Positions 934 to 38,771 are shown, counted from the first letter of the stretch. The stretch: 41,966 nt of DNA from Candidatus Geocrenenecus huangii (GCA_023254095.1 JALNLM010000008.1:1-41966), one strand, 5' to 3'. The notes: a model not told the origin generated them from the letters alone. Program-made: numbers and translations.

Positions 934-1527
934 CTACCTTGTTCTAGGTTTTACTATTATTTCTTTTATTGTTAGATTGAAGAAATTGTTCGAGTGAGAG
1001 GGCTTGATTACCAGGGCCGTATCCGCACCTCTACTTGTACCTGCTACTGCTATAACATCTTTATCGACTGGAATCAATCCAGCGTCTGCAGCCATAACCG
1101 TTATCTCAACACATACCTTTACACCTTCACCGAATAATCGTAGCGTTTCAGAAATTATAGCCAGCATTCCAACTGTGCCTAACTTATTTCTTATACCTCT
1201 CTCCACGCCTGAGAAAACATGAGATGCCGTAAGTATTTTCCCACCCATCTTAATTATTTCTTCTTCGAACTCCTTCTTCATCTCTTGCATGCCCGGCTGC
1301 CGAAAACCCGTATGATGCCTAACAACTACTATGTTAAATCCTTTGAAGACTCTGCATGCTTTTACTCCCGTCTCTCCCGTAGTCGAAGCTACTACAACAT
1401 CCTTGATTCCCAGTTCCTCTGCTCTCCTATATGCGTGTTTTAAGGTTTCATCAGTATTCTGGATTCCTGGTTCTTCAAAGTATATTACTTCTACACTTTT
1501 ACAACTACCACTTCTATCTTCCAACAT
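934..1527 (-). CDS. Pyruvate-kinase C-terminal-like alpha/beta domain protein (COG1751/MTH1675 family)
   Basis: Motifs YFEEPGxQNT, VVASTTGETG, HHTGF, GVKVCVEITVMAADAG, AGTSRGADTA. SD GGAGG upstream. Confidence 0.85.
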   Translation of the reverse strand: MLEDRSGSCKSVEVIYFEEPGIQNTDETLKHAYRRAEELGIKDVVVASTTGETGVKACRVFKGFNIVVVRHHTGFRQPGMQEMKKEFEEEIIKMGGKILTASHVFSGVERGIRNKLGTVGMLAIISETLRLFGEGVKVCVEITVMAADAGLIPVDKDVIAVAGTSRGADTALVIKPSHSNNFFNLTIKEIIVKPRTR

Positions 1528-1935
1528 CCAAATCCTCCACTACCTAACCCAGATATAGAAAATACTGCCACAAATACCATTCCAGCAGCTTGATTATTCC
1601 TGACTCAAAACGATGTAGGTAGACTAATAAAGTTTTCATTAAGCCTCTATAACCTCATTAATAAGCTTGGTAATTACCCTATTAAGCCCAGAATAAATTT
1701 CATACGTGATGAATATTCCAGAAGAGTTCTTCTGAGAATGCTTAAGCTGGTGACGCGCAAGCTGTAGAAGACTGCCCGTAAAAATTAGTGATGGAGCTTA
1801 ATATACGGATCCGATAGCATTCTCCCAGCTCATCATCAGTATTCAGTAATCAAGGGTCTCTTCTTACGCAAGCTCAACAGCCTGTTAAAACGAGACTTAG
1901 ATTTTTGGTAATATTTTGTAGAGGTGTTGGCAAGA

Positions 1936-1964
1936 TTTATATTTTGGATGGATAATCCATCCAA
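1936..1964 (+). promoter_or_regulatory. TATA box followed by a perfect 21-bp palindromic operator candidate
   Basis: TTTATAT at 1936-1942, then TTGGATGGAT-A-ATCCATCCAA at 1944-1964 (perfect 10-bp arms, 1-nt spacer), then ATG at 1966 (leaderless geometry). Confidence 0.75.
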
Positions 1965-1965
1965 C

Positions 1966-2308
1966 ATGCAAGAATACAAAGAACTTAGCCTAACAGCGGT
2001 TATGGTGGCTGTTTGTATAGGGTCAAATTACGTCCTGACAGAGGTGGCTAAAACACTATACGACGACATGCTAAAGGCGTGGTGGGATGTTGATGCGGAA
2101 TCACATGGGGCCATGGCTTTGTATGTGAAGGTGATCAAAGGCGAGGAGGAGACGCGATATTGGATCTGGTGGTCATGATGGATCTCGGATGGTCTGAAGG
2201 TAGATCAGCATGCGACAAGTACATTATAAGTAATGGCGAGACGATTTTCTGGTATTACTTATACACTTATACCTCGATCAGCGAACGTATAAGGTTATCC
2301 CACCATGA
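1966..2308 (+). pseudogene. Chimeric remnant: N-terminus of a CbrT-like ECF S component fused to a frameshifted DUF4430 (transcobalamin-like) domain
   Basis: MQEYKELSLTAVMVAVCIGSNYVL resembles the first helix of CbrT-like S components. It continues TLYDDM...GAMALYVKVIKG...RYWIWWS to a stop at 2176-2178, then in another frame DLGWSEGRSACDKYIISNGETIFWYY, which fits the DUF4430 pattern. A probable second shift gives ...TYKVIPP* (TGA 2306-2308). Confidence 0.65.
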
Positions 2309-2340
2309 TAAGCATCATCCTCTTTTCTGGAGGTGGTTAT

Positions 2341-4269
2341 ATGGTTAAGTTGGTTAGGAAGGGTGGGTTTAAGCCCGTCGACTCGAAGAGAATTTATGAA
2401 AAGCTTACTGATGAATTTACGAGAAAGCGGTATGAAGGCTTGAAAGAAGAATTCAGGCTAATGACCCAGATAGAGCTAGTCGACTCATATCTTGAAATGG
2501 TTGACTGGAGGATTAAAGAGAACGCGAACATGAGCTTCTCACTTCAAGGCCTAAACAACTACTTAGCTGGCTCGGTTGTGGCGAACTACTGGCTTAACAA
2601 GCTTTATCCGCCAGAAGTTGCCGAGGCCCATAGGTCAGGCGACTTCCACATACACAACCTTAACGTCCTAGCCTCCTACTGCTGTGGCTGGGATTTGATG
2701 GACCTACTTATGGTAGGCTTCAGGGGCGCGCCGTGTAAAATCGCGAGCAAACCTCCAAAGCACTTTAGGACAGCCCTCCTCCAAATTGCAAACTATACCT
2801 TCACATTACAAGGCGAGACAGCTGGAGCCCAAGCCTTCTCCTATATAGACGTTTACCTAGCACCCTTCATTAGAGAAGACGGCCTCTCAAGAAGAGAGGT
2901 TGAGCAGGCTTTACAGGAATTCATATTCAACATGAATGTTCCAACAAGAGTTGGCTTCCAAACTCCCTTCAGTAATCTTACGCTCGCCGGAGGCATCCCA
3001 GAGTTTATGAAGAATATGCCGGCGCTCATCGGCGGGCAGTTTAATGGCGGCTATTACGGTGACTACGAAGATGAGGTTGAAATGTTTAATGAAGTATTTG
3101 CAAAAATCATGTGTGAAGGCGACGCCGAGGGAAGGGTCTTCACATTTCCAATACCAACCTACAACATAACCAAAGACTTTAACTGGGAAGGCGAAGTTGC
3201 TAGGGGGATATTTGAGATGACCGCTAAGTATGGGATTCCATACTTCGCAAACTTCGTTAACAGTGACCTTAAACTCGAAGATGTTAGAAGTATGTGTTGC
3301 AGGCTTAGACTTGACACCAGGGAGCTTAGAAGGAGAGGTGGAGGACTATTCGGTGCAGATCCATTAACCGGCTCAATCGGTGTCGTAACAATAAACATGC
3401 CTAGAATAGGCTTCCTCTCAGGAGGAGATGATGAAAAGTTCTTTGAGAGACTTGACACGTTGATGGAACTCGCTAAGATAAGCCTTGAAATCAAGAGAAG
3501 TGTTCTTGAGCACTATACTAAGGTGGGCTTATACCCCTATAGCAAATTCTACCTTAGAAAGATTGAGGAGGAATTCGGTGGCTACTGGAGAAACCACTTC
3601 TCAACAATAGGCCTAGTGGGGATGAATGAAGCGTTGCTCAACATGTGGGGCGTAGGAATAGAGGATCCAGAAGGCAGAAAATTCGCGGTAAAAGTCTTAG
3701 AGCACATGAGAGAGAGGCTTGTAGAGTTCCAGAGAGAGACTGGGAACATGTATAACCTTGAGGCCACACCGGCTGAAGGCGCATCATATAGACTCGCGAG
3801 GATTGATAAGCAGAAGTACCCGAACATAAAAGTAGCGAACGAGGAGAATGTTAAACGTGGCTTAGCCCCATTCTACACAAATAGCACGCAACTACCTGCG
3901 GACTGCAAACTAGACCTCTTCGAAGCCCTTGAGCACCAAGAACACCTCCAGACACTCTACACTGGCGGAACTGTTTTCCACATATGGCTTGGGGAGAGAC
4001 TTTCATCATGGAGATCAGCCGCCACTCTCGTCAGGAAGATCTTCACGAGCTTCCGCATACCATACATCACGCTGACTCCGACGTTTAGTGTCTGCTTAAA
4101 CCATGGATATCTGAGCGGAGAGCATAAGCAATGCCCACATTGTGGAGCAAAATGTGAAGTCTACTCAAGGGTTGTAGGTTACCTTCGACCAGTTGATCAA
4201 TGGAATGAGGGTAAACAGGCGGAATTCGCTATGCGTAGAAAATATGATGTGAAAGGTGAGGTGAATTAA
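2341..4269 (+). CDS. nrdD: Anaerobic (class III) ribonucleoside-triphosphate reductase, no ATP cone
   Basis: GDFHIHNL..YCCGW, TFPIPTYN, SMCCRL finger loop, NLEATPAEG, CxxH...CxxC metal site and the glycyl-radical motif YSRVVGY. Start placed at ATG 2341 because GGAGGTGG lies just upstream. Confidence 0.95.
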   Translation: MVKLVRKGGFKPVDSKRIYEKLTDEFTRKRYEGLKEEFRLMTQIELVDSYLEMVDWRIKENANMSFSLQGLNNYLAGSVVANYWLNKLYPPEVAEAHRSGDFHIHNLNVLASYCCGWDLMDLLMVGFRGAPCKIASKPPKHFRTALLQIANYTFTLQGETAGAQAFSYIDVYLAPFIREDGLSRREVEQALQEFIFNMNVPTRVGFQTPFSNLTLAGGIPEFMKNMPALIGGQFNGGYYGDYEDEVEMFNEVFAKIMCEGDAEGRVFTFPIPTYNITKDFNWEGEVARGIFEMTAKYGIPYFANFVNSDLKLEDVRSMCCRLRLDTRELRRRGGGLFGADPLTGSIGVVTINMPRIGFLSGGDDEKFFERLDTLMELAKISLEIKRSVLEHYTKVGLYPYSKFYLRKIEEEFGGYWRNHFSTIGLVGMNEALLNMWGVGIEDPEGRKFAVKVLEHMRERLVEFQRETGNMYNLEATPAEGASYRLARIDKQKYPNIKVANEENVKRGLAPFYTNSTQLPADCKLDLFEALEHQEHLQTLYTGGTVFHIWLGERLSSWRSAATLVRKIFTSFRIPYITLTPTFSVCLNHGYLSGEHKQCPHCGAKCEVYSRVVGYLRPVDQWNEGKQAEFAMRRKYDVKGEVN

Positions 4270-4370
4270 TGGATATAATAAGTGAACTGGCGCCAGATGA
4301 ACATGTACACTTATCAGAGGAGAGATATTACGGGCGTAAATCACCGATACACCATTTTCTTAAAGAGTAA
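4269..4370 (+). CDS. Putative 33-aa small protein coupled to nrdD
   Basis: ATG overlaps the nrdD stop (TAATG), with a strong SD (AGGTGAGGTG) inside the nrdD 3' end. Sequence MDIISELAPDEHVHLSEERYYGRKSPIHHFLKE. No recognisable family. Confidence 0.35.
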   Translation: MDIISELAPDEHVHLSEERYYGRKSPIHHFLKE

Positions 4371-4466
4371 AGAGCATAGTACTGAAGTGAACATAAATAT
4401 GATTAAAAAGGTTTAAACTAAAGGGCTCTAAGGTATTGAGGCAAGATATTAAAGAAGTGACTGAGG

Positions 4467-5147
4467 GTGAAGTTTGCGGGTCTTCAGAAAACCAGTCTGC
4501 TCGACTACCCTGGCTATGTGGCTTCGGTGCTCTTTACGCCTGGGTGCAACCTCCATTGCCCCTATTGTTACAATTGGAGGATAGCCTTCCAGCCATCTCC
4601 TCCATTCCTTTCAGAAAAAGATGCGCTTGAAATACTGCGCCAGCGCAAAAGATATGTTGATGCTATTGTTATCACGGGTGGCGAGCCTACAATCCATAAT
4701 GATCTTCCAACTTTCTTAAAGATGACCAAGGTTGAGAACTTCATCGTTAAACTTGACACAAATGGCTTTAGACCAGATATCCTTGAAGATTGCTTGCCAT
4801 ATTTAGACTATGTGGCGTTAGACGTTAAGACCTCGCCGAGAAAATATCACATGCTAGGAGCTGGGGACGTTTCACCTCTCCTTAAATCAATAGATCTTTT
4901 GAAGAGCGGCAAAGTCAGCTATGAGTTCAGGATAACTGTAGTTCCAGAAGTTGTGGTAGCCAGGGACATCGAGGAGATCGGGGAGCTATGTAGAGGAGCG
5001 GAGAGACTTATATTACAGCAGTTCTTTCCTGAAAACGCTTATGAGGGGTGCTTCAAACAACTAAACCCATACTCCGTTGAGATACTCCACTTATTCGCAA
5101 GCATTCTGAGAAATTATGTAAACGAGGTTCTTGTCAGATACCTTTAA
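4467..5147 (+). CDS. nrdG: Anaerobic RNR activating protein (radical SAM)
   Basis: SLLDYPG...FTPGCNLHCPYCYN (CxxxCxxC), ITGGEPT, KLDTNG, YEFRIT. Adjacent to nrdD. Confidence 0.93.
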   Translation: MKFAGLQKTSLLDYPGYVASVLFTPGCNLHCPYCYNWRIAFQPSPPFLSEKDALEILRQRKRYVDAIVITGGEPTIHNDLPTFLKMTKVENFIVKLDTNGFRPDILEDCLPYLDYVALDVKTSPRKYHMLGAGDVSPLLKSIDLLKSGKVSYEFRITVVPEVVVARDIEEIGELCRGAERLILQQFFPENAYEGCFKQLNPYSVEILHLFASILRNYVNEVLVRYL

Positions 5148-14648: not shown

Positions 14649-16195
14649 TATAGTCCCCCTGTTATCTCTATCATTTCTTCTTCAAACCTTATGAAGAGAC
14701 GGAATAGTGTATCGGATGCCAGCGAGACTAGGTAGTAGATCACTCCGCTCAGAGTTAATAGTAACCCGAGGCAATAGGTTGGTGTGAACTTCGAGTCTCC
14801 TTCAACTATGTAGAGTGCTATTGAGCTTGATAAAGCTGTCACTAGTATTATCGTGTAGAAGTATGTAGAGATCTGAGAGGGGCTAATCATAGCTATTACT
14901 GGAAACCAGTCTTGTATTAGTAGGCTAAACCTGTAAAGTATTTTCGCTAGAGTTGCTATTAACGCAGCTACTGCGACTAGCGTGGCCTGTAAAGGTATAG
15001 CTAGACCTCTAAGAGTGCCGGCAACCTGTCTTCTCTTCTTTCTATCAATCAACTGTCTAATCACGTAGTCGTACACAGATTTGGCGTAGACTTCAGATCT
15101 AGCTCCGTAGAATATACTATCCGCTATTATTCTAATAGTTTTTAAGATGAGGTTGCTCAGGCTTTCCAGTCCTAGAATGTTTAGAGACTTGTTCTGCTCG
15201 AATCCCATTTCAAGCCTTCTACGTAGACGTCTAATCAGCTTGTTCAACGCTCCGTAATCATTCACCTCCAGAATGACCGAGGACGCTTTCAGGGAGTTTG
15301 TGACCGAGATGGCGTCTCCTAGAGACTTCACGAAGGATGGGTAGCTTTCATCTATCTTCTCTACTTGTTTTATCCATTTTCTCCCAATCTTCCCTACTAG
15401 GAGAAGCGGTATACCTGCAGTGATGATGGGTAGAGGTATCGGTGTTAGATTATTGATAATGGGGTTTTCTGAGCTCATGCTCTTGTTTAGCAGGATGAAT
15501 AAAATTATCGAGAAAGCGATACATGGAATAAAGATTAGTGAATTAAATTTATGGATCATCTTTAGAGAGGGTGGGGCAAGCTCTTCGGTGTGCAGTATAG
15601 GGTCAGGCGGTAAAGCCCTAGCCATCAAGAATATTATGGTGGCCAGCGTCCCGGCTATCATAAGTACAGAATAGGTTAATACCTTGTCGACTTCGACACC
15701 GTATATCATTGAGGTCAAAAGCATTGAGACGCTCAAAAAAGTTGCAGACGTTAGTAGAGCAGAGTATGCTTCAATATACCTTTTTACTCTTTCTACCGCT
15801 CTATCGAATTCTGCAGCACTTGTTTCTAGAAGCTTCTCATACTCGATCTTCATAAAGTTCTCTAAGTCTACCCCCATATTCAAAGAGTATGAAAGTCTCT
15901 GGAGGAATTTCTTGATATTATCTTCTCTAATCGTTGAGGAAACTAGCTGGATTGCTTTATGCAGTGTATAGTTCCACCTATTCACTAATAGTGATATCTT
16001 GCTAAAGATTGCTGTTAAGTCTCCGAGGGCGTATCTTGATCTTCCCGCTATGTTTATAACATCTCTAGGCGATGAGGTGACAGTCGAGAGAGAGTATAGG
16101 TGGATTATCATTATCGAGTAGAAGCCTCTAAGCTTCGCAGATTGTTCAAAATCCTCTATGAAGGCCTTTACCGTCTTCAATAATCGTTTAATCAT
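14648..16195 (-). CDS. flaJ: Archaellum membrane platform protein ArlJ (FlaJ)
   Basis: Polytopic TadC/GspF-like protein (FLQRLSYSLNMGVDLENF, YPSFVKSLG) directly downstream of flaI. Confidence 0.9.
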   Translation of the reverse strand: MIKRLLKTVKAFIEDFEQSAKLRGFYSIMIIHLYSLSTVTSSPRDVINIAGRSRYALGDLTAIFSKISLLVNRWNYTLHKAIQLVSSTIREDNIKKFLQRLSYSLNMGVDLENFMKIEYEKLLETSAAEFDRAVERVKRYIEAYSALLTSATFLSVSMLLTSMIYGVEVDKVLTYSVLMIAGTLATIIFLMARALPPDPILHTEELAPPSLKMIHKFNSLIFIPCIAFSIILFILLNKSMSSENPIINNLTPIPLPIITAGIPLLLVGKIGRKWIKQVEKIDESYPSFVKSLGDAISVTNSLKASSVILEVNDYGALNKLIRRLRRRLEMGFEQNKSLNILGLESLSNLILKTIRIIADSIFYGARSEVYAKSVYDYVIRQLIDRKKRRQVAGTLRGLAIPLQATLVAVAALIATLAKILYRFSLLIQDWFPVIAMISPSQISTYFYTIILVTALSSSIALYIVEGDSKFTPTYCLGLLLTLSGVIYYLVSLASDTLFRLFIRFEEEMIEITGGL

Positions 16196-17909
16196 ATTCC
16201 TCGATCTCCCAGATTTTTTCTCCTAGACTGATTCGCTCCAGCGTCTCCTCAACACTCCTATTGTAAGTATACTTGATGACTCTCCATATATGGAAATAGT
16301 CTAATATGTTCAATCTAGCAAGAGTGGAGAGAAGCTCAGCCCTCATCTCTAGGTCTACATAGATCTTCTTCAAGTCTCTTCTACCGATCCCCTTCATTAC
16401 GGCTATCTTATTCTCTAGAAGATGGCTACTACCCTCACCTCTAAATTCATGTAGATCCGTACTAGGCTGCCAACTGAACAACTCAATATAATCAAATCTA
16501 TTATCTTCTGGGTCGTATCCAACTATCTCATTTATCGATAATACCCTCCTCTCTACTTTCCCCGTGCTAGGTATTCTTACAGCACTTTGGACGACTACTG
16601 CGTTAAGTATGTCTATGTATGTTTTCGGGATTTCTATAGGAGAGCCTGAAAGTCTTTGGATTAACTTCTCAACACTTCCAGCATGGAATGTAGCAAGTAC
16701 AGGAGCACCCGTCTGCATCGCCTGGAAAGCCACGCTCGCTTCTTTCCCTCTAACCTCTCCAACTATAATATAGTTTGGCCTCTGCCTGAGAGCTGCCTTC
16801 AATAAATCGAATAATTCTATGCTTGAGCTCCCCGACTCGGATTGTCTTGTTACCTCTCTCACCCAGTTATCGTGGGGAACTATTATCTCAGGCGTATCTT
16901 CTATGCTTATTATCTTATAGTGGGGATTGATGAACACACATACTGCTCGTAGGAGCGTTGTCTTACCGCTAGCTGTTTCCCCGCAAAACCAGATACTCAT
17001 ATTGTTTTCGAGAAGAATCCATAGGTAAGCTGCGCCTAGAGCACTTATCCCGCCGTACTTGATTATCTGGATTATACTTATAGGTTTATCACTAAATTTC
17101 CTGATAGTAAAGTTCGTGCCCTTCATGCTTATATCTTTCCCGAATACTATGTTAATCCTAGAGCCATCCGGAAGGGATGCATCGACGATAGGGTTTCTAA
17201 AAGTTACAGGTCTGCCAGTTCTCTCCGAGAGCTTTCTAACAAAATTGTCTAACTCATACTCATCTCTAAACACTATATTAGATTGACAGCTTCCAAAAAT
17301 CTTATGCTCTACGAAAATTGGGCCAACTCCGTCACAGCTAACGTCCTCGATATACTCATCTCTAATAAAAGGTTCAAGTATTCCCATCCTTATTTTATCC
17401 ATTATCAATTGATATTCTAAAGACCTGTACGTCTCGTTGTTTACGTATATTCTTTTGTAGCCGCTCTTCTTCTCTATTCTATAATCTCCTGTCTTAAGGC
17501 TTCCATCTATCTTGATCGTATTCTTTAGAATCTTCTTCAAGACTTCTTCATGTTCTTCCACAGTTTTGAAGTCTACACTCTCATCTATCTTGGAGATTAT
17601 TAATTCTTCGACGATCTCCATTATCCTGCATATCTTCTCATTGATAGTTGGCTGGATGACAATATATGATGGTCTCTCTCCCGGCTTCACAGATTTTATA
17701 TGAATGAATATTGGATCTCCTACAGGGTACAAAATGTTTACTTCTTTAGAGTACCTCATCTCTCGGCTGAGCTGCTCAAAATATTCTGGAAGCTCCTCGC
17801 CCTTCCTAGCTAGATTATCTAGGTATCTTGCTAGATGAGGATTCTTTGAAAGAGAATCCTTAAAATTCTTGGCAAGCCTTTCCTCCATGGTCTTGACTAT
17901 TTGACTCAT
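16188..17909 (-). CDS. flaI: Archaellum motor ATPase ArlI (FlaI)
   Basis: YPVGDPIFIHI, DASLPDGSR, Walker A GETASGKTT, IEDTPE, ALRQRPNYIIVGEVRG, TFHA. Confidence 0.95.
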   Translation of the reverse strand: MSQIVKTMEERLAKNFKDSLSKNPHLARYLDNLARKGEELPEYFEQLSREMRYSKEVNILYPVGDPIFIHIKSVKPGERPSYIVIQPTINEKICRIMEIVEELIISKIDESVDFKTVEEHEEVLKKILKNTIKIDGSLKTGDYRIEKKSGYKRIYVNNETYRSLEYQLIMDKIRMGILEPFIRDEYIEDVSCDGVGPIFVEHKIFGSCQSNIVFRDEYELDNFVRKLSERTGRPVTFRNPIVDASLPDGSRINIVFGKDISMKGTNFTIRKFSDKPISIIQIIKYGGISALGAAYLWILLENNMSIWFCGETASGKTTLLRAVCVFINPHYKIISIEDTPEIIVPHDNWVREVTRQSESGSSSIELFDLLKAALRQRPNYIIVGEVRGKEASVAFQAMQTGAPVLATFHAGSVEKLIQRLSGSPIEIPKTYIDILNAVVVQSAVRIPSTGKVERRVLSINEIVGYDPEDNRFDYIELFSWQPSTDLHEFRGEGSSHLLENKIAVMKGIGRRDLKKIYVDLEMRAELLSTLARLNILDYFHIWRVIKYTYNRSVEETLERISLGEKIWEIEEYD

Positions 17910-17913
17910 CCTC

Positions 17914-18633
17914 TCACGCTTTAGCTCTAGAGAAGGGGAGTACCTTTATCCCGAATGCAGGATCAACATCGAAGCTCAAGGTTATCGATGTCTGCTTCAC
18001 TGCACCTTTTAATTTTGGGACTTGAAGTATCTTGACTATCCTGTCGCCTATCTCTTTGACCTGTAGTATGAAATGGACGTCCGAGATGCTTCTCATTCTT
18101 ACAAGCATTTCTTCGCTGAAAGCATATGGGTGAACGGTTACTATCATTGACTTATCCTTTTCCTCTATTATGTTTCTAGCCTCTGTGAAGAAGTTGAGAA
18201 TATCTTCTTCTTTAGCATGAGTGACCAGGTATGTTAGAGAGTCGATAACGTATAGGTCGAAGTATTCTCTAAGTTTTATAGTGTTCAATATCAGCTCTAG
18301 GAACCTTGATGAGAGGAGTTCATCCCATTCCAAGTCTTTAACATGTAATTCGTAGATCTGTAATACACCCTTCAAGTAGTATTCTTTTACCGATAGGCTA
18401 ATCTCTTCCATCGATTTTAGAAGACCCCTAACCCCAGATTCAGTAGTTATAAAAAGTGTTCTGCAACCACACCTAAGAGCCCCGTAAACATATTGTTGTG
18501 CCAAGACACTTTTCCCACTATCATTTGGACCCTCGATCAAGCATAAGAAGGGGATTCTAAGTTCCCCGATCTTTCTATCTAGCTCAGGGTTCATCGCTTT
18601 TACAAATCTAGATTTACCAGATTCCTCGCTCAG
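17914..18633 (-). CDS. flaH: Archaellum KaiC-like ATPase ArlH (FlaH)
   Basis: Walker A GPNDSGKS, Walker B VIDSLT, TVHP, SFDVDPAFGIKVLP. Start uncertain: CTG 18633 (SD-supported), TTG 18657 or ATG 18594. Confidence 0.9.
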   Translation of the reverse strand: MSEESGKSRFVKAMNPELDRKIGELRIPFLCLIEGPNDSGKSVLAQQYVYGALRCGCRTLFITTESGVRGLLKSMEEISLSVKEYYLKGVLQIYELHVKDLEWDELLSSRFLELILNTIKLREYFDLYVIDSLTYLVTHAKEEDILNFFTEARNIIEEKDKSMIVTVHPYAFSEEMLVRMRSISDVHFILQVKEIGDRIVKILQVPKLKGAVKQTSITLSFDVDPAFGIKVLPFSRAKA

Positions 18634-19166
18634 TTTCTCCCACCTCCTTCGATGCAAGGCACTATCAAGACTGACTCTCCAACAACTGGTTCATCTTTTC
18701 TTACCCATGCTTCTATTAGTAGAGCTTCGCCTGGATCCCATAATCCTGATTTAAAATCTCCTGAGACTGGGTTAACCAATTCCGCATGATTACCGTACTC
18801 TATTCTTAGTGGGAGCCAACCCTCATCTAAGCTTCTACTTGGATTATATGTAAGCCATTTTACTCTAGTCTTGTTATCGGTTGATCTATATAGAAAGATT
18901 ACGTCGAGAAGAGGAAAATCTGTTACATGTAGAGGTTTAATACATTTATTCACAAGTTTTAATGATATCGACGTGTTGTCCGGAGAAATCTCTAACTCTC
19001 TGATCTCTATTTCTCCCCTATTTCCTAGTGAGCTCTTCTCTAAGTACTGGCTATAGTATATGAAAAGCGATGTATTGTTGGACAGACTGTTTAACATGTA
19101 TCCAACTAATATGAGCGTAGTTAGCGTAAAGATTACGAACACGGAGAGACTTCCAAGACTAGACAT
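18630..19166 (-). CDS. flaF: Archaellum stator protein ArlF (FlaF)-like
   Basis: N-terminal TM helix, beta domain with LVNP...GLWDPGE. Lies between flaG and flaH. Confidence 0.7.
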   Translation of the reverse strand: MSSLGSLSVFVIFTLTTLILVGYMLNSLSNNTSLFIYYSQYLEKSSLGNRGEIEIRELEISPDNTSISLKLVNKCIKPLHVTDFPLLDVIFLYRSTDNKTRVKWLTYNPSRSLDEGWLPLRIEYGNHAELVNPVSGDFKSGLWDPGEALLIEAWVRKDEPVVGESVLIVPCIEGGGRN

Positions 19167-19177
19167 TCCATAACCCC

Positions 19178-19666
19178 CTACACTGAGAAAAAGTATTCAC
19201 AGGTTTTTCCATTGAACAGTACTAGCTTGACATTGTAATCTCCTTCAGTAAGTGCTTCGTCTAGATTTGATGTAATCTCTAGTGTCTCAGCAGGATCCCA
19301 TCTACCATCATCGTCTACGTCATTCAGCAGTCTGTATGTCCAGCCAGACGATGGATCTTCGTGGAGAAGATACTTTACACTATTATATGATATTAGGAGT
19401 ATCTCTGAAGATTGTATTAGTTGAGGTGATACCTGTTTTGCTCCAGTATTCTTTACCCACAGCTTCACGATATCTGAAGAAATAGATGAATAAGCGAAGA
19501 CTATTCTACAATCGTATTCTATTTCTTCTTTGATTTTCGCTAGTTGAAGTTTCTGAAGGTCTGCTGCTTGATTCATGTTTGAGATGTAGACGCTTGCTAT
19601 GGTTGATGCAACGACGATCGATACTATTGCAAGAATTACCTCCGTCATTAATGACCCTACAGGCAT
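19178..19666 (-). CDS. flaG: Archaellum stator protein ArlG (FlaG)
   Basis: TEVILAIVSIVVAS TM helix, LWVKNTG, WDPAETLEI, GDYNVKLV. ATG 19666 follows the upstream stop. Confidence 0.8.
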   Translation of the reverse strand: MPVGSLMTEVILAIVSIVVASTIASVYISNMNQAADLQKLQLAKIKEEIEYDCRIVFAYSSISSDIVKLWVKNTGAKQVSPQLIQSSEILLISYNSVKYLLHEDPSSGWTYRLLNDVDDDGRWDPAETLEITSNLDEALTEGDYNVKLVLFNGKTCEYFFSV

Positions 19667-19667
19667 G

Positions 19668-20318
19668 TCACGGCACACCCTCTCTACTCTTAAATTCTCC
19701 GAGAGGCTCCTTCAAACCAAACATTAGTAGTATGAAGAACCTATCGTCTACTCTATTATTAGCTAGCAGGCTTATAATGTATGCTGCTGCAACTGTAGAA
19801 TCTAGAGATAACCGGCTCGGAGAACGAACATATACTTCTCCACCAGAATATTTGAGTAGAAAATCCACTACGTCTATCAGAGAATATATCAGTCTCCTAG
19901 GTACAAGTTGACCGGCTATCCTAGAGTTGAGAAACTTTAATACATGTTCCGGACCTAGCAGCTTTATCAGTATCGAACCGCATGCTAGAACATTTAGTAG
20001 GTTTACTTGACCTAAATGAGGTTCTTCGAATCTCGATCCTATGCTTTCTCTACCTACATCCTCGAAATCTTGGAGAGGTTCCTGGAAGACTTCTTTTTTA
20101 CTACTCTTCTTTACGTTTTCTACTTCTTGAGATGCTTGCCTAGGCTGAAATTTTTCAAGGTCTATTATCTTCGCAACGTAGTTGAAGGGGTTTTCCAGCT
20201 CCGATATGAGTTGTCTTACGTCCATGAGTGTAGTCTCTAGAGGTCCCTTCATCCTTCTAACTTCATCTTCAAGTTCTCTAAGCCTCTTTTCGAGGAAGCT
20301 GTGTTCTTCACGGCTCAT
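19668..20318 (-). CDS. Soluble archaellum accessory protein with coiled coil and ENPF motif (ArlCDE/ArlX-related)
   Basis: N-terminal coiled coil ending LMDVRQLISELENPFNY, reminiscent of the NPF motif of ArlC/ArlX. Occupies the slot upstream of flaG. Confidence 0.6.
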   Translation of the reverse strand: MSREEHSFLEKRLRELEDEVRRMKGPLETTLMDVRQLISELENPFNYVAKIIDLEKFQPRQASQEVENVKKSSKKEVFQEPLQDFEDVGRESIGSRFEEPHLGQVNLLNVLACGSILIKLLGPEHVLKFLNSRIAGQLVPRRLIYSLIDVVDFLLKYSGGEVYVRSPSRLSLDSTVAAAYIISLLANNRVDDRFFILLMFGLKEPLGEFKSREGVP

Positions 20319-20841
20319 CCACTCTTTCCTCCAGAGGAGTTATAAGAACAAATTCACATATTGTGTTCTCATTTTCATCTAGGCACGTTGAAACCTTCTT
20401 AATTTCTAACGGCATTTTAAAGAACAGCTCATAATATCTTGAAAGTATTCCTCTATAGAAAAAGTATACGAGAGAAGTTTTGAAGTCTGAGTCTTCTTTA
20501 GAGAATTTCTCAAATTCTTTACTATTGATTCTACAGACTAATTCTAGACGACCGTCCGGTCTAAATGCTTTAAGTATAAAGGTATCCTTAACAAGGTTAT
20601 GTATCTTTAAACAATTGACAAGATACTCATTAGCTTCTTCAAGAGAAGCTCCTCCAGACTTTAAACATGGATGTAGATTGAATAAATCTTCACCGATAGA
20701 CCTGCCAAAGCTATAAAGCAGAACGTTCGTCAGACCCATTCCCAAGCTACTTTTAACAACGTCTAATATCAGTCCTATCACTTCATTAATGCCTGTGAAT
20801 GAGAAACCATTACATTCTTTATCCGAATTGAATACGCTCAT
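20308..20841 (-). CDS. V4R (4-vinyl reductase)-like ligand-binding domain protein, first gene of the archaellum motor operon
   Basis: LLYSFGRSIG, FFYRGILSRYYELFF and C-x8-CEF (TCLDENENTICEFVL) follow the V4R pattern. Confidence 0.65.
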   Translation of the reverse strand: MSVFNSDKECNGFSFTGINEVIGLILDVVKSSLGMGLTNVLLYSFGRSIGEDLFNLHPCLKSGGASLEEANEYLVNCLKIHNLVKDTFILKAFRPDGRLELVCRINSKEFEKFSKEDSDFKTSLVYFFYRGILSRYYELFFKMPLEIKKVSTCLDENENTICEFVLITPLEERVDEP

Positions 20842-20953
20842 AATCTCACAATCCCCTCAAAATAATACTAAAAAGATATTTATATATTTTTCTTGAGCTA
20901 TTTTTGTAAGATAACATTTATATATCAGTATTATCTAAATATTATTGAGAAAA
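20842..20953. promoter_or_regulatory. Divergent promoter region between the motor operon and the archaellin
   Basis: AT-rich, with ATTTATATAT twice (20878-20887 and 20916-20925). The second copy is flanked by the inverted pair AGATAA...TTATCT. Confidence 0.55.
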
Positions 20954-21556
20954 ATGTGGTGGAAAACTCAGGTAAGGAGAAAGATGAGTAGACGTGGATT
21001 AACAGGCCTAGAGACAGCCATCATTCTAATAGCATTCGTTATCGTTGCTGCTGCATTTGCTTTTGCAGTATTGAATCTGGGATTTGCATCTACTCAAAAA
21101 AGTGGTGAAGTTCTAAAAGCTGGATTAGAAGAAGCTACTTCAAGCATAGAGCTAGCAGGCTCGGTGATAGCTACTGGCGAAAAAGCGAGTGATAATAATA
21201 TGAAGGTGTCCAATATTACATTATATGTCAAGACTGCGGTTGGAAAGAGACCTGTAGATCTCAGTAACAATACTTTGATAATATCTTACATGGATCCATA
21301 TAAGGTCGTCGACAAACTTACCCATGGAGTACAAGTAGAAGTCTCGGAAATACAGGGTGATGGAGATTCCCTGATAGAGTATGGTGAATCATTTAAGGTC
21401 GTAATACATGTTGATCAGATCTACGGAGGTATCGATAACGTCCAGCTAAAGCCTAATGATGTATTCGTAATAGAAGTCAAGCCTCTGGTAGGCGCAGTAC
21501 TAAAAGTTGAGAGAAGGATACCTCCATCAATCGATCCTGTAATGGACCTAGCATAA
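20954..21556 (+). CDS. flaB: Archaellin ArlB (FlaB)
   Basis: Class III signal peptide RRG/LTGLETAIILIAFVIVAAAFAF, GDGDSLIEYGE, IEVKPLVGAVL; sequons NIT and NNT. Start is ATG 20954 or ATG 20984 (AGGAG upstream). Confidence 0.95.
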   Translation: MWWKTQVRRKMSRRGLTGLETAIILIAFVIVAAAFAFAVLNLGFASTQKSGEVLKAGLEEATSSIELAGSVIATGEKASDNNMKVSNITLYVKTAVGKRPVDLSNNTLIISYMDPYKVVDKLTHGVQVEVSEIQGDGDSLIEYGESFKVVIHVDQIYGGIDNVQLKPNDVFVIEVKPLVGAVLKVERRIPPSIDPVMDLA

Positions 21557-27469: not shown

Positions 27470-27637
27470 ATATTCAACCATAGATATACCGTATGAAAAT
27501 ACATCTTTGGGAGAATAGTACAAGAGGTACAGAAAATTAATGGATCAGATTCTAAAATCTTTGAAAGAACTATCTGTTGGAGGCTAGAACTTGAAAAAAT
27601 CTACAATAAGCAAGAATATTCATCTTCAGGAGGCTTA

Positions 27638-27659
27638 TCTCCACTTGAACAAAAGGGGT
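27638..27659 (+). repeat. Origin recognition box ORB-3 abutting the cdc6 start
   Basis: TCTCCACTTGAACAAAAGGGGT immediately before TTG 27660. Confidence 0.8.
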
Positions 27660-28907
27660 TTGGAGGATCCTTTACGGGACGTTGTTAATAAGGCTTTACA
27701 GAGACCTAAAATCTTCAAAGATAGGCAAGTTATGCGTTCAGATTACATCCCTGGAAATCTTCCTCACAGGTCTGAACATATTAGAAGGCTGGGAGAGATT
27801 CTTTCTCCATCTCTACGTTTCTCTAGAGCAAGTAACGTTTTCATCTATGGTAAGACTGGTACAGGGAAGACGGCCGTCGTTAAGTATGTCTTCAAAAGAT
27901 TTAAGGAGGTCGCCGACCTCGAGAGGTTGCCACTACAGTTCTCTTACATTAACTGTCGTATTGCTGGAACAGAATATCGAGTACTTGCTGAACTATGTGA
28001 TTCAATCGGTGTTAGAGTACCCTTTACAGGCTTGTCTAAAGCAGAGGTATTCAATAGGTTTAGGAGTTCACTGAAGGAGAAGAACATGTTCTTGATAACA
28101 TGCTTAGACGAGATAGATGTACTAGTAAAAAATTATGGAGACAATCTCCTATATGAATTGACTAGAATTAATGAAGGCTTTGAGGCTGGAGGATTAAATC
28201 TTGTCGGTGTATCGAATGACCTCCACTTCAAAGAGCTACTAGACCCAAGAGTACTGAGTAGTCTAAGCGAGGAGGAACTCGTCTTCCATCCATACACTGC
28301 ACTAGAGTTAGTCGACATACTGATGGAGAGAGCGGCCATGGCCTTCTATCCTGAGGCGGTCCCAGAAGAAGTAATCAGACTGTGCGCTGCCCTCGCAGCA
28401 CAGGAGCATGGAGATGCTAGGAGGGCTATAGATCTACTAAGGGTTGCAGCCGAGATAGCTGAGAGGAGCGGGGCCTCTGTGGTCGAAGAAAAACATGTTA
28501 GGTTAGCTCAGAACATGATTGAGAGAGGTAGAGTTTTCGAAGCATTATCTACACTTCCGCTTCACAGCAAGCTTGTTCTGACATCCCTATATCTCCTAGC
28601 GAGAAATAATGTGCAGAACTCTATGTCGGGATTACTCTACGAAGCCTACCGTCAAGTATGCTCTCTATTAGGTATAGAACCGTTAAGTGATAGAAGAGTT
28701 AGCACGCTTATATCAGAACTCGATATGCTAGGTGTTCTCAAAAGTGAGGTTGTAAGTATGGGCAGGTATGGTAGGTCTAGGAAGATAACACTCATGACAT
28801 CAATTGACGAAATTGAACAAGTGTTAGAGAACGACGACCTCCTTAAAACTATCTTGAAAGATGTGAAAAACCTATATACCGTCAAGAAAGAAGCCTCTAC
28901 TAAGTAG
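27660..28907 (+). CDS. cdc6: Orc1/Cdc6 replication initiator
   Basis: YIPGNLPHR, Walker A GKTGTGKT, YINC, Walker B LDEID, LDPRVLSSL, HGDARRAIDLLR, and wHTH with SMGRYGRS. Start moved from 27591 to TTG 27660 (xEDPL N-terminus). Confidence 0.95.
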   Translation: MEDPLRDVVNKALQRPKIFKDRQVMRSDYIPGNLPHRSEHIRRLGEILSPSLRFSRASNVFIYGKTGTGKTAVVKYVFKRFKEVADLERLPLQFSYINCRIAGTEYRVLAELCDSIGVRVPFTGLSKAEVFNRFRSSLKEKNMFLITCLDEIDVLVKNYGDNLLYELTRINEGFEAGGLNLVGVSNDLHFKELLDPRVLSSLSEEELVFHPYTALELVDILMERAAMAFYPEAVPEEVIRLCAALAAQEHGDARRAIDLLRVAAEIAERSGASVVEEKHVRLAQNMIERGRVFEALSTLPLHSKLVLTSLYLLARNNVQNSMSGLLYEAYRQVCSLLGIEPLSDRRVSTLISELDMLGVLKSEVVSMGRYGRSRKITLMTSIDEIEQVLENDDLLKTILKDVKNLYTVKKEASTK

Positions 28908-29044
28908 TACTCTATAAATTCCAGTTTTATACAGGTGTGTTTATAAGTGTACATGTCCGTTGACATGGAGTGGCAAAACATCTTAATACGGTAATGGAAT
29001 ATTCTTAGTCTAGTCACGCTGTGTTCTAGGATGGTGTAAAGGAC

Positions 29045-30529
29045 TTGGAGTATCTCAGGAGGAGGCTCGTCGAAGAAGCTTTAAGAGAAGGATATAATCT
29101 AACTTCAGAGGCCATATCTATACTTGAATCACAGCAGAACCCTCTGGAGACGCTTAGATACATTATCAAGTATCTAAGGACAAGTAGACCAGAAGTAATA
29201 ATAGTTGACTCTAGCCACCTCAGAGAAGTAGGTTTAAAGGTTGTCGATGCTGGGTATGCCGTCTCAGATATAGTGATTGAGAAAGCTCCTCTAGAAGAAT
29301 GGATTCCGAAAATCGAAGTCGATGAAAGATTTCTAAGACATTACAAGATTAAAGGAGAGATAGACGAATTCCAAAACTATTTTAAGAATAGGTACATGAA
29401 GATCAAAAGTATTCTAGAGAAGAGGGGAGAACATTTCTCGAGGATAATCGACCTATTGAAGAATCCTAGGGGTAGTGAGGCCACATTAGCGGTAATACTG
29501 TTGGAGAAGATAGAGAAAGAGCAGTCGATAATACTTCGAGTTGAGGATGATACAGGTACAGCTAGACTCATGGCCCCTAAAAGAGACCTTGAGCTAGCTA
29601 AGAAGGCTGAAAGACTCGTAGTTGACCAAGTCTTCGGAGTCAGAGTCTCCAAGATAGATAATACCTTTATCGTTAGAGACGTCTTCATGCCAGATGTACC
29701 CATTAAGTGGAGGAATGTAGATGAAGAAAGTATTCCCGAAGTCTATATCGCTTTAATCTCAGACCTTCACATAGGCAGCAAGAAGTTTAGAAGAGATTTG
29801 TGGGAGAACTTCCTAGACTGGTTAAGCAACTCTCGTGACCCGGAAGTAAAAAGACTTAGATACCTGGTCGTAGCGGGAGACATCGTTGATGGAGTAGGAG
29901 TCTTCCCGAAGCAGGAGAAAGAGCTTGAACATACTTCGATTACGCAGCAAATAGAAGAAGCGGCTGGTCTCTTCTCAGAAATACCTAAAGAGATCAAGTT
30001 GATAATCTCCGTTGGAAACCATGACCCGGTGGTGAGGGCTCTCCCCCAGCCTCCTCTACCTGACAAGCATAGAAAGAAGCTGGAGAAAGACCGTGAATAC
30101 ATATTCGTAGGTAACCCTGCATATATCAAGGTTGAGAATAGAAGTCTACTCGTATATCACGGTCAAAGCCTAGACGATATTATACAGTATCTCCCAAACA
30201 TATCCTACTCTATGCTAGAAAGAGAGATCAAGAATGTTCTAGAAACCTTAATTCAATGTAGACATCTCGCACCTATATATGGCGAGAACACGCTTATCCT
30301 ACCCACTCAGGAAGACTTGCTAGTCATAGAAGATATTCCAGATATACTACATACTGGTCATGTACATGTTGCATACACTGGAAACTATCGTGAGGTAGTC
30401 TTGGTTAATAGTGGTACATGGCAGGAGCAGACAAGTTATCAGAGAGAAGTAGGCTTAGAACCGACAGTGGGAACAGTAGTCTTGTTAAACCTGAAAACGC
30501 TATCTGCCAAATTGAAAAAGTTTATGTAG
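29045..30529 (+). CDS. polD1: DNA polymerase D small (proofreading exonuclease) subunit DP1
   Basis: YFKNRY, OB fold with VEDDTG, and phosphoesterase motifs SDLHIGS, AGDIVDG, GNHD, HGQSLDD, RHLAP, GHVH, NSGTWQ. Confidence 0.92.
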   Translation: MEYLRRRLVEEALREGYNLTSEAISILESQQNPLETLRYIIKYLRTSRPEVIIVDSSHLREVGLKVVDAGYAVSDIVIEKAPLEEWIPKIEVDERFLRHYKIKGEIDEFQNYFKNRYMKIKSILEKRGEHFSRIIDLLKNPRGSEATLAVILLEKIEKEQSIILRVEDDTGTARLMAPKRDLELAKKAERLVVDQVFGVRVSKIDNTFIVRDVFMPDVPIKWRNVDEESIPEVYIALISDLHIGSKKFRRDLWENFLDWLSNSRDPEVKRLRYLVVAGDIVDGVGVFPKQEKELEHTSITQQIEEAAGLFSEIPKEIKLIISVGNHDPVVRALPQPPLPDKHRKKLEKDREYIFVGNPAYIKVENRSLLVYHGQSLDDIIQYLPNISYSMLEREIKNVLETLIQCRHLAPIYGENTLILPTQEDLLVIEDIPDILHTGHVHVAYTGNYREVVLVNSGTWQEQTSYQREVGLEPTVGTVVLLNLKTLSAKLKKFM

Positions 30530-36905: not shown

Positions 36906-38771
36906 ATGGTTAAAGGTGGTTTTGTAGGAAAAATTCTTAGAGTTGACTTATCCCGTCAAAAGATATGGTTTGAACCTCTGCCCGAAGATCCTATACTCAG
37001 AAAGTTTGTTGGATGCTGGGGGCTCGGCTTAAAGCTTCTCTATGATATGTGTCCTCCGGGAATTCACCCGCTAGAACCTAGCAATCCACTAATATTTATG
37101 ACTGGGCCGCTTACAGGGATACCAGGTATCCCAGCGGCTAATAACACTACTTTGACTACTCTTAATGGGGATACTGGATTCACAGCTGGTAGGTCTCATA
37201 CACATGGATGGTTTGGTCCAAACCTAAAATTCGCTGGGTACGATGGGATAATAATAACTGGTGCTTCTGATGAGTGGGTCTATCTCTGGATCAATGATGG
37301 TGAAGTAGAGCTTAGAGATTCTAGTAAATTCCTGGGAAAAGACACTCATGAAACAGAAGATTTAGTTAAGCAAGATGTCGGTGAACCTAAGGCGAGTGTT
37401 GCAGCTATTGGGCCTGCTGGCGAGAACCTATGTCATGGTGCATTAATCGAGAATGACAAGAACCACTCGTTCTCTCATTCTGGTGTAGGACGTGTTATGG
37501 GCAGCAAGAAGCTTAAAGCTATAGCTGTCTATGGAACGGGGAGGGTCCCAGTATATGATGAAGAAAAACTGAGAGAAGTTGCAAAGATGTGGCATGAAAA
37601 TTTATTCAAGAGCGATGTAGCTAAAGGCTTAGCGAGAGGAGGAATACCAAGAGACGAATACAATTATGCTAAATCCATGTCGATAACATCCGCTAAAAAC
37701 TTTCTAGAAGTGAGTCCACCACAATGGGGCGTGGGAATGTCTAAACACAAGATAACTCCTAAGCCTTGCTTCGCTTGCCCGATAGCATGTAGCTATGATA
37801 TAGAGATAGTTGAAGGACCTAAGAAAGGATATGTAGCAACACCCGCAGGCGGAGGAGAAAATCTTGAGGGAGCAGCATCGATAGTAGGAGTATATGATAG
37901 TAACTGGGTCTTCTACTTGATAGATCTATGCGATAGACTCGGATTCGAATCCAGCACGATAGGATGCACTATAGCACTATGCATAGAATGCTATGAGAAA
38001 GGTTTACTGAAGAAAGAAGAAATAGACGGTATAGAACTGAGATGGGGAGACCCTGAACTAATAGATAGGCTCCTACATATGGCTGCGAAGAAAGAAGGAA
38101 AAATAGGTAAACTACTCGCTCTAGGACCTAAAGGTGCAGCAGAGTATATAGGTGGAGATGCATGGAAGTATACCATACATGTTAAGGGGACAGGCATGAA
38201 TCTACATGATTGGAGAGCGGCCATGGGCATAATGCTTGGGCAGATAGTGGGTGGAGGATCAGGATGGCCAGCTCCTGCAGCTGATGCATGGGCTACGGAA
38301 CCGGACGTAGGTTACCCAGAGTATGAAGACCCGGTCAATCCAAGGCTTAAACCGTTAGCGGTAGCTAAGACGTGGCCTAAGAAGTATTGGGATGACTGTA
38401 ATGGTACATGCTGGTTTGCCACATGGGGTGTGCCTGGAGCATTAAGATTTACTTCAGGAGCGGTGGCCGCGGCTACTGGATGGGACTTCACTGCTGAAGA
38501 GGCATTACAAGTAGGTGAAAGATTAGTACATCTAGAGAGAGTATTCAATGTAAAACATGGATTAACAGTAGAAGATGATACATGTGTTCCACCCAGAATA
38601 GTTGAGGCTCCACCTAGTGGTAAAGCTGCAGGCAAACCCATGGCCCCGTATGTAGAGTGGATGGTTAAAGAAACCTATAGGCTTCTAGGATGGGATGAGA
38701 AGACGGGTAAACCATTAAAGAGCACGTTAAAGAAAGCTGGGCTAGAAGAGTACATTAAAGATATCTGGTAG
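36906..38771 (+). CDS. Aldehyde:ferredoxin oxidoreductase family (tungstopterin) enzyme
   Basis: GKILRVDLS, LKFAGYDGIIITG, IGPAGEN, VMGSKKLKAI, CFACPIAC Fe-S motif, HVKG, ERVFN, GWD..G.P. Confidence 0.9.
   Translation: MVKGGFVGKILRVDLSRQKIWFEPLPEDPILRKFVGCWGLGLKLLYDMCPPGIHPLEPSNPLIFMTGPLTGIPGIPAANNTTLTTLNGDTGFTAGRSHTHGWFGPNLKFAGYDGIIITGASDEWVYLWINDGEVELRDSSKFLGKDTHETEDLVKQDVGEPKASVAAIGPAGENLCHGALIENDKNHSFSHSGVGRVMGSKKLKAIAVYGTGRVPVYDEEKLREVAKMWHENLFKSDVAKGLARGGIPRDEYNYAKSMSITSAKNFLEVSPPQWGVGMSKHKITPKPCFACPIACSYDIEIVEGPKKGYVATPAGGGENLEGAASIVGVYDSNWVFYLIDLCDRLGFESSTIGCTIALCIECYEKGLLKKEEIDGIELRWGDPELIDRLLHMAAKKEGKIGKLLALGPKGAAEYIGGDAWKYTIHVKGTGMNLHDWRAAMGIMLGQIVGGGSGWPAPAADAWATEPDVGYPEYEDPVNPRLKPLAVAKTWPKKYWDDCNGTCWFATWGVPGALRFTSGAVAAATGWDFTAEEALQVGERLVHLERVFNVKHGLTVEDDTCVPPRIVEAPPSGKAAGKPMAPYVEWMVKETYRLLGWDEKTGKPLKSTLKKAGLEEYIKDIW

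Follow-up and report, generated by a model that had tools for sequence, protein, structure and literature searches.

A palindromic promoter element as putative operator of an archaeal cobamide regulon, with PH0730/DUF4443 as candidate regulator

Here we analyse a 21-bp palindrome in a promoter upstream of nrdD and nrdG (nrdDG), the genes of the B12-independent class III ribonucleotide reductase and its activase, in the archaeon Candidatus Geocrenenecus huangii (GCA_023254095.1). The DNA under study, called the window, comprises the first 41,966 bases of contig C11 (JALNLM010000008.1:1-41966); the genome counts 1.61 Mb and is 96% complete. We suggest, with a probability of about 0.7, that the palindrome is the operator of a phylum-wide cobamide (vitamin B12) regulon, likely controlled by a winged-helix protein of the DUF4443 family, and that in the window it most likely now serves nrdDG. 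A cobalamin regulon had been proposed earlier from the sequence of this stretch alone (the sequence-only reading). Further sites, their gene neighbours, a B12-dependent reductase (NrdJ) elsewhere in the genome and a candidate regulator speak in favour of that proposal.

The genes found behind the palindrome are those of a cobalamin regulon: uptake genes (with the ABC, that is ATP-binding cassette, system assigned at family level only), synthesis and salvage genes (in relatives only), and a B12-independent isozyme in genomes that also encode NrdJ.

Results

A perfect palindrome between TATA box and start codon

In the window TTTATAT at 1936-1942 is followed at 1944-1964 by the palindrome, and with C at 1965 the palindrome ends 1 nt before the start codon ATG at 1966-1968. 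The TATA box, the palindrome and the ATG lie, to the base, where the sequence-only reading had placed them. In 100 dinucleotide shuffles of the window 0.00 palindrome matches are expected at up to three mismatches. A second ATG (1948) is in frame and sits within the dyad, about 9 nt from the centre of the TATA box. The usual distance from the TATA box to the start of transcription in archaea is about 25 nt, hence this ATG cannot be in the transcript.

The element has the properties of archaeal repressor-type operators: a dyad of about 15-25 bp, a position downstream of the TATA box and over the start region, and conservation before linked genes. We consider it on these sequence grounds to be a conserved operator, not a product of chance.

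The palindrome recurs before transporter, salvage and nrdD genes

The palindrome has the general form TGGATGGAT-N-ATCCATCCA. At up to three mismatches the 21-mer is found at three places in the genome, and its reversed sequence, used as control, at none. The same three sites are the only ones above 14 bits with a weight matrix trained on 71 related sites (38.1, 35.3 and 29.9 bits), the window site being the best. The second copy (C5:4840-4860, minus strand) is arranged as TTTAAATA, dyad, C, ATG and opens the gene of a membrane-anchored Peripla_BP_2 protein, followed by that of a BtuC-like FecCD permease. At the third copy (C5:22060-22080) TTTATAT abuts the dyad, and the gene opened is that of the matching ABC ATPase. 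All three sites share the layout of TATA box, palindrome, 1-8 nt and ATG. We suggest that the binding protein, the permease and the ATPase make up one transporter, split over two loci and tied together by the palindrome.

Related genomes were scanned with the 19-base core of the palindrome at up to two mismatches, again with the reversed sequence as control. The core is present in 48 of the 61 genomes of the order (control, 2 matches), in 56 of the 76 genomes of the class and in 140 of the 401 genomes of a phylum sample (control, 6 matches). A regulon with this operator had been expected to show further copies at promoters of B12-related genes and conservation at related loci. Both are found, with copies before a btuF/btuC-like operon and a btuD-like ATPase gene in the same genome, and before salvage and synthesis genes and nrdD in relatives.

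Across the order (61 genomes) the palindrome has 63 distinct sites, which were classed by the first gene behind each. Of these, 61 belong to promoters of just a few classes of linked genes. BtuF-like binding proteins account for 32 sites (29 confirmed by Pfam; the other 3, of which one is partly masked, are assigned by likeness only). CbrT-like S components follow at 9 sites, with a DUF4430 gene next wherever reading continued, and a 220-223-residue membrane protein without Pfam family at 7, each time followed by a DUF4430-like gene. nrdD comes first at 5 sites and an ABC ATPase gene at 4; the window contributes 1 site. Two further sites precede an apgM-like metalloenzyme gene in a cbiB-cobS-cobD-cobY-cbiZ-btuF-cobT cluster, and one a salvage cluster with a broken btuF-like gene. 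The last 2 sites have no gene start nearby and are probably due to chance.

In one relative (G019) two sites frame the cluster cbiB-cobS-cobD-cobY-cbiZ(+PgpA-like)-btuF, with cobT adjoining, and part of this cluster is repeated in two more genomes (G031, G034). Outside the class the site precedes genes for CobN (twice, E about 1e-182), ChlI, DUF4430 surface proteins, S components above the Pfam cut-off, FecCD permeases and a CobD-like aminotransferase. The usual order is TATA box, 0-2 nt, dyad, -1 to +8 nt and start codon; in 29 of the 32 loci examined, the distance between the end of the 19-mer and the start codon is -1 to +8 nt.

One locus of the genus, between a CutA gene and the gene of a HemL-like aminotransferase (here C5:1277-5348, L108; in congeners L034, L035 and L036), carries btuF and btuC in five genomes and the genes of a CbrT-like protein and a DUF4430 protein in three. 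The same palindrome precedes either version, which we interpret from this gene order as a swap of transporter cassettes under a constant operator. The window genome has the btuFC version at this locus and a decayed copy of the other version in the window.

The genome appears to depend on imported B12

NrdJ is encoded outside the window (TIGR02504 761 bits, cut-off 400), in line with the expectation of an nrdJ elsewhere in the genome. A B12-binding radical-SAM protein and a PduO-type adenosyltransferase are also present, and a search of the genome found no CobS, CbiB, CbiZ or CobT. From this gene content the organism looks like a B12 auxotroph, which would import the vitamin, adenosylate it for NrdJ and keep NrdDG as the B12-free alternative. 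An arrangement of NrdJ and NrdDG of this sort is what bacterial B12 riboswitches control.

The covariance model of the cobalamin riboswitch (RF00174) has no match in the genome, with the control matched in 7 of 14 known genomes. Together with the leaderless gene behind the palindrome this bears out the description of the system as riboswitch-free. The element is DNA and no RF00174 match was found, therefore a protein must do the sensing.

A PH0730/DUF4443 winged-helix protein is the candidate regulator

The sequence-only reading had found no regulator in the window and had looked to a co-occurring one elsewhere. We propose the winged-helix protein of the DUF4443 family, whose gene repeatedly adjoins the site, as the most likely regulator. 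In the window genome its gene is located outside the window (C17:72933-73556; PF14544 96 bits), and 56 of 61 relatives carry a single copy from this family. In one of these (G045) a 209-residue gene with PF14544, CggR_N and PH0730-like_N is divergent from the palindrome. In the phylum sample, eight genomes (G045, G185, G199, G303, G408, G383, G229, G217) have a DUF4443 gene no more than 1.5 kb from a site, and six others (G398, G308, G136, G108, G283, G112) no more than 9 kb from one. Five families have no DUF4443 protein, and among their 35 genomes the motif occurs in 1. Genus g9, which has the DUF4443 protein and no close motif, has diverged variants of the site in the corresponding position of the promoter of the orthologous binding protein.

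The adjacency is also seen in an independent sample, in which the 6 kb on either side of the gene were searched. The dyad (up to three mismatches) is present in 14 of 80 loci, six times 50-130 bp before the start of the gene, and the reversed control gives 0 matches in 789 kb.

The AlphaFold model of the candidate regulator (predicted local distance difference test, pLDDT, 92) corresponds along its entire length to PH0730 (PDB 2p8t; profile E 2.6e-29, Foldseek 3e-11, VIA Z 19.1 over 171 residues). In its N-terminal half the model has a winged helix of the MarR/CggR type (MarR-type Z about 11), and the alpha/beta domain of the family has an invariant G-L-E-Q-R-D motif. A search of the ESM Atlas with the sensor domain returns DUF4443 clusters only. 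In the literature searched we found no function for PH0730 or DUF4443 and no paper mentioning DUF4443; PMC6316755 lists PH0730 just as a family name among the transcription factors of Pyrococcus furiosus.

In its strongest form the proposal is that PH0730/DUF4443 is the long-missing archaeal sensor-regulator of B12. It would be a winged-helix repressor that binds a corrinoid through a fold new for cobalamin and that sets uptake, salvage, synthesis and the choice between NrdJ and NrdD through one 19-21-bp operator across much of the phylum. We put this forward tentatively, at rather less than even odds.

NrdR was also considered as the regulator and was dropped, since the regulon consists mostly of transporters.

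A decayed transporter operon lies behind the window palindrome

The coding sequence between the palindrome and nrdD is broken. The N-terminus encoded by the open reading frame (ORF) 1966-2178 resembles that of membrane proteins of 182-186 residues found in congeners behind the same palindrome (...CIGSNY... in common), and the promoters of these genes align with that of the window as well. From 2053 on, the remnant corresponds to residues 68-111 of a congener DUF4430 protein (59% identity over 44 residues), and residues 115-142 of that protein are found at 2181-2264 in another frame (71% identity over 28 residues, tblastn). Alignment of the DNA with three congeners reveals a large internal deletion, a 12-nt deletion, a 1-nt deletion and an 8-nt insertion in the remnant; the 1-nt deletion makes the stop TGA 2176-2178, which ends the first part. 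For comparison, the HemL-like gene beside the CutA locus keeps 83% identity between the same two genomes whose remnant shows 59-71% and frame breaks. Window positions 1500-2700, or parts of them, recur with 0 differences in contigs from four sequencing runs of four studies, therefore the breaks are real and not an assembly error. The runs that hold the window sequence are hot-spring metagenomes.

We conclude from these alignments that the remnant at 1966-2308 derives from a pair of genes for a CbrT-like S component and a DUF4430 protein. The sequence-only reading had named the same two families, an assignment that stands by way of intact orthologues and finds no direct profile match. In Pfam the two remnant ORFs (the first of 70 residues) give nothing beyond a chance hit at 0.078. 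The intact DUF4430 protein of a congener reaches 32.5 bits (PF14478, cut-off 23.8). The intact S components of congeners (182-186 residues) fall below the cut-offs of PF12822 and PF07155, and those of relatives at loci L095 and L191 lie above. A profile of twelve S-component-like proteins matches a single PDB chain, 6fnp_A, over its full length (E 1.9e-8); 6FNP is ECF-CbrT, a vitamin B12 transporter (PMC5997447).

Searches of the PDB with phmmer gave no match for the S component or for the DUF4430 protein, and with the DUF4430 profile nothing significant. The model of the DUF4430 protein (pLDDT 69) has no Foldseek match at E <= 0.001, and the wide search with VIA is filled by its N-terminal helix. 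DUF4430 is linked to the transcobalamin beta domain, a link on which these fold searches are uninformative.

nrdD and nrdG behind the remnant

As the sequence-only reading had it, nrdD begins 32 nt past the probable stop of the remnant and behind a Shine-Dalgarno-like sequence: its ATG (2341) is 32 nt beyond the ancestral DUF4430 stop TGA 2306-2308, with GGAGGTGG at 2329-2336 in between. The assignment of nrdD is clear from curated models (NF006126 950 bits, cut-off 548; TIGR02487 574 bits, cut-off 326). The match to NF006126 covers model positions 91-683 only: the N-terminal ATP cone of the relatives is absent. Residue 40 of the window protein aligns with residue 91 of the protein of a relative (G027); ahead of it stand 39 residues with no relationship to the sequences of relatives, and the region concerned is 2341-2460. 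The allosteric on/off control by ATP and dATP may thus be missing, as judged from the sequence.

nrdD occurs in 9 of the 61 genomes of the order and in 0 of the 7 other genomes of the genus. Of the 8 relatives with nrdD, 5 have a TATA box and the dyad immediately upstream of a leaderless nrdD-nrdG pair. NrdJ is present in 4 of these 5, and was not found in the fifth genome, which is 86% complete. The features of the window are collected in Table 1.

Table 1. Positions of the promoter, the remnant and the nrd genes in the window
Feature	Position	Strand	Evidence
TATA box (TTTATATT), leaderless promoter	1936..1943	+	sequence; layout repeated at the two other sites of the genome and in most relatives
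Putative operator, perfect 21-bp palindrome TTGGATGGAT-A-ATCCATCCAA	1944..1964	.	10+1+10 dyad; top-scoring site of the genome
Remnant, part A: about 28 N-terminal codons of a CbrT-like S component fused in frame to the DUF4430 gene from about residue 68	1966..2178	+	alignment with congeners
Remnant, part B: C-terminal part of DUF4430 in a shifted frame, with 8-nt insertion, to the ancestral stop TGA 2306-2308	2181..2308	+	tblastn, DNA alignment
Shine-Dalgarno-like GGAGGTGG	2329..2336	+	sequence; 4 nt before the nrdD start codon
nrdD, class III (B12-independent) ribonucleoside-triphosphate reductase	2341..4269	+	Pfam NRDD 2.8e-197; NF006126; TIGR02487
nrdG, radical-SAM activase of NrdD	4467..5147	+	Pfam Radical_SAM 2.1e-23; TIGR02495 NrdG2 164.6 bits (cut-off 131.15)

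Discussion

Proposed model of regulation

In the proposed model a dimer of the DUF4443 protein would sit on the dyad, let TBP and TFB bind and keep RNA polymerase off. Repression is the expected outcome because the palindrome lies between the TATA box and the transcription start. When B12 is available, the cobamide-loaded regulator would shut the uptake genes and nrdDG, and NrdJ would do the work. When B12 is absent, the promoters of the uptake genes and of nrdDG would be released. The members of the regulon would be the BtuFCD-like ABC system and the CbrT-like S component with its membrane-anchored DUF4430 protein; in relatives also salvage and synthesis genes; and nrdDG where NrdJ exists.

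The window promoter would once have driven a cbrT-like/DUF4430 operon. This operon presumably decayed because the genome now uses the BtuFCD-like system under the same operator. A perfect TATA box and dyad stand over decayed coding sequence, for which reason we argue that the promoter serves nrdDG now. The intact promoter and operator would most likely act on these genes from 375 nt upstream, with nrdDG probably co-transcribed from the palindrome promoter.

Alternative explanations

Several observations weigh against this model, and we consider them together with the alternatives. The operator and the regulon may be real and the window promoter a relic, with nrdDG read from a start of its own inside the remnant and outside B12 control here. 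TATA-like TTATAA (2224-2229) and TATAAG (2288-2293) indeed lie within the remnant, 112 and 48 nt before the nrdD ATG, so the earlier statement that nrdD has no obvious TATA box of its own was too strong. The Shine-Dalgarno sequence is as compatible with a short leader as with a gene inside an operon. nrdD is rearranged at its 5' end, where the ATP cone is lost and the first residues have no relationship to those of relatives. In three genomes (G011, G019, G045) nrdD is without this palindrome even at five mismatches. However, TATAAG 2288-2293 is inherited coding sequence, found in an intact congener gene too, and 1966-2340 contains no run of at least five T. A TATA box and a 21-bp dyad that are intact over decayed coding sequence, with the best score in the genome, are unexpected with nothing left to drive, and where nrdD exists in relatives control by the palindrome is the rule (5 of 8). 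A relic promoter is thus unlikely in our view, though to be taken seriously. A separate difficulty concerns the sign of regulation. In five binding-protein promoters of genus g2 (G012, G020, G024, G026, G032) and at three salvage-cluster sites (G019, G031, G034) the dyad is upstream of the TATA box, and with such sites position alone would leave the sign of regulation unfixed.

That the regulon is related to B12 and answers to another regulator than DUF4443, or that its effector is cobalt or a precursor such as cobinamide, seems to us rather unlikely. The C-terminal half of the DUF4443 model is nearest the insertion domain of bacterial aspartyl-tRNA synthetase (AspRS; Z 11.2); it has no known cobalamin-binding fold and no known corrinoid-binding relative. 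In the window genome the DUF4443 gene has neither B12 neighbours nor a palindrome upstream. The family is found in 323 of the 401 genomes of the phylum sample and the motif, at two mismatches, in 140; DUF4443 being far commoner, co-occurrence discriminates little. A MarR-like winged-helix gene behind the site in G229 offers another candidate. Against this, adjacency of the DUF4443 gene and the site recurs in many families and in the independent sample, and genus g9 keeps its diverged sites at the same promoter position. In a genome without CobS or CbiB, moreover, cobalt or cobinamide would be ill suited to decide whether NrdJ or NrdD is used. A very improbable option is a regulon that answers to iron, heme or siderophores, in which the ABC system would import an iron complex and nrdDG, with its iron-sulfur activase, would be tuned to iron. 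The BtuF-like and BtuC/D-like proteins are below the curated cut-offs of the B12-specific NCBIfam models and are in sequence equally near to heme and siderophore systems. The best PDB match of the binding protein is 4m7o, an 'iron-binding protein' (3.8e-33), then a heme-binding protein, with BtuF at 1e-16, and the best NCBIfam names of the ATPase are FecE and heme transporter ATPase. However, no iron-uptake or iron-storage gene is found among the 63 sites of the order, and just one neighbour has to do with metals, a ZIP-family (zinc/iron permease) gene that diverges from the site in G012. We favour B12 over iron because the neighbours are genes for cobamide salvage (cbiB, cobS, cobD, cobY, cbiZ, cobT), cobaltochelatase (CobN, ChlI), DUF4430 proteins and CbrT-like S components. 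The palindrome could also be a boundary of recombination or of a mobile cassette, given that the CutA/HemL-like locus holds either of two cassettes, each directly behind it. The register to the TATA box and the start codon is fixed, however, the downstream genes are functionally coherent across the phylum, and no integrase or transposase adjoins the sites examined. Homologous exchange between conserved flanks explains the swap, which leaves the boundary an extremely improbable interpretation.

Relation to known systems

The cobamide regulon proposed here has its counterpart in bacteria, where Rodionov et al. in 2003 reportedly reconstructed the regulons of the cobalamin riboswitch by comparative genomics. 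As here, the bacterial regulons comprise B12 transporters, cobamide synthesis and salvage, and nrdDG in genomes that also have a B12-dependent isozyme. Unlike the riboswitches, the present element is DNA upstream of the start of leaderless genes. To our knowledge archaea, unlike bacteria, have no B12 riboswitches. The abstract of the same 2003 study is said to mention an archaeal 'CBL-box', the signal of a hypothetical B12 regulator, with no regulator named; like the palindrome it would be a DNA signal before archaeal cobalamin genes. Text searches of the literature returned no mention of the CBL-box or its consensus, and the present motif may be the same, a relative or another one. In the literature searched no archaeal B12-sensing regulator has been named since the 2003 prediction.

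CarH and LitR are bacterial adenosylcobalamin-dependent repressors, and CarH, of the MerR type, has a Rossmann-like B12-binding domain, senses light and controls carotenoid genes. As proposed here, they are DNA-binding proteins with B12 as ligand. Unlike CarH, the candidate has a MarR/CggR-like winged helix and an AspRS-insertion-like domain, and would control the B12 economy. Archaea use ThiR (thiamine) and RbkR (riboflavin) as vitamin regulators in place of riboswitches, and these have been tested biochemically. Both resemble the candidate as proposed here in having a winged helix fused to a small-molecule-binding domain, and palindromes at promoters for transport and synthesis of the vitamin. 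They differ from it in their sensor domains and vitamins, the candidate being known here from sequence and model. Its full-length homologue PH0730 of Pyrococcus horikoshii (PH0730-like_N and DUF4443) is deposited under 2p8t as a 'hypothetical protein'. The S-component-like proteins under the operator have ECF-CbrT of Lactobacillus delbrueckii (6FNP) as their sole PDB match. Unlike in ECF-CbrT, the archaeal S-component gene is paired with that of a membrane-anchored DUF4430 protein.

Three points seem to be new: that the operator extends so widely across the phylum, that nrdDG belongs to the regulon, and that PH0730/DUF4443 is its likely regulator. A sharply defined phylum-wide operator, a coherent regulon and a candidate family with a crystal structure (2p8t) make the question testable at the bench. 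The operator is spread among many hot-spring and sediment archaea, and the palindrome is a cheap marker for B12-related genes of unknown function in uncultured archaea, among them DUF4430 partners, the 220-residue membrane protein and the apgM-like and asparagine-synthase-like enzymes.

Further genes beside the operator

In three genomes, belonging to two families, the operator is immediately followed by the gene of an apgM-like 'Metalloenzyme' protein (L039:1527-2552, L081:8088-9116, L089:265-1458), beside cobamide salvage genes. The protein is a distant relative of the 'proposed homoserine kinase' family and could be a candidate for an unassigned step, e.g. making threonine phosphate. The membrane protein of 220-223 residues, which belongs to no Pfam or NCBIfam family and could represent another type of B12 uptake component, occurs in seven genomes of genus g4 (L067-L073), where the gene of a membrane-anchored DUF4430-like protein follows. 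Genes for a Dph6-like ATP pyrophosphatase (PF01902) and an asparagine-synthase-like protein, the latter by a CbiA-like gene, recur beside or behind the operator (L004, L005-L008, L012 and L061, divergent from a btuF-like gene; L013, L014, L094). Both could act in the corrin pathway as amidation enzymes. In genomes from outside the class, a gene of glycosyl-transferase family 3 (phosphoribosyltransferase-like; L193:2035-3186 in G090) and the MarR-like winged-helix gene with DUF7839 (L200:2169-2981 in G229) are likewise found behind the operator.

Two observations concern the nrd genes of relatives. In G011 (L055:3300-3375) and G019 (L054) a weaker DUF4443 paralogue is divergent from nrdD. The short spacer between them holds two 17-bp palindromes, TTGGACAC-C-GTGTCCAA and TTGGATAC-G-GCGTCCAA, with TTGGA...TCCAA ends as in the operator, and the paralogue and these palindromes may form a second regulator-operator pair dedicated to nrdD. 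In G034 (C66:486-3602) NrdJ matches in two pieces inside one open frame of 1306 residues, which suggests an inserted element, perhaps an intein.

Other contigs in three of the sequencing runs (X10, X11, X12) match window positions 1932-1972 over the TATA box and the palindrome alone (33-35 nt, 2-3 differences) and then diverge; we take them to carry the same operator in other members of the community. The rest of the window looks ordinary, with an archaellum cluster (two flagellins, a FlaI-like ATPase and a KaiC-like protein), Cdc6/Orc1 beside the small subunit of DNA polymerase D, and an aldehyde:ferredoxin oxidoreductase of the tungsten type (14651-21553, 27591-30526, 36906-38768).

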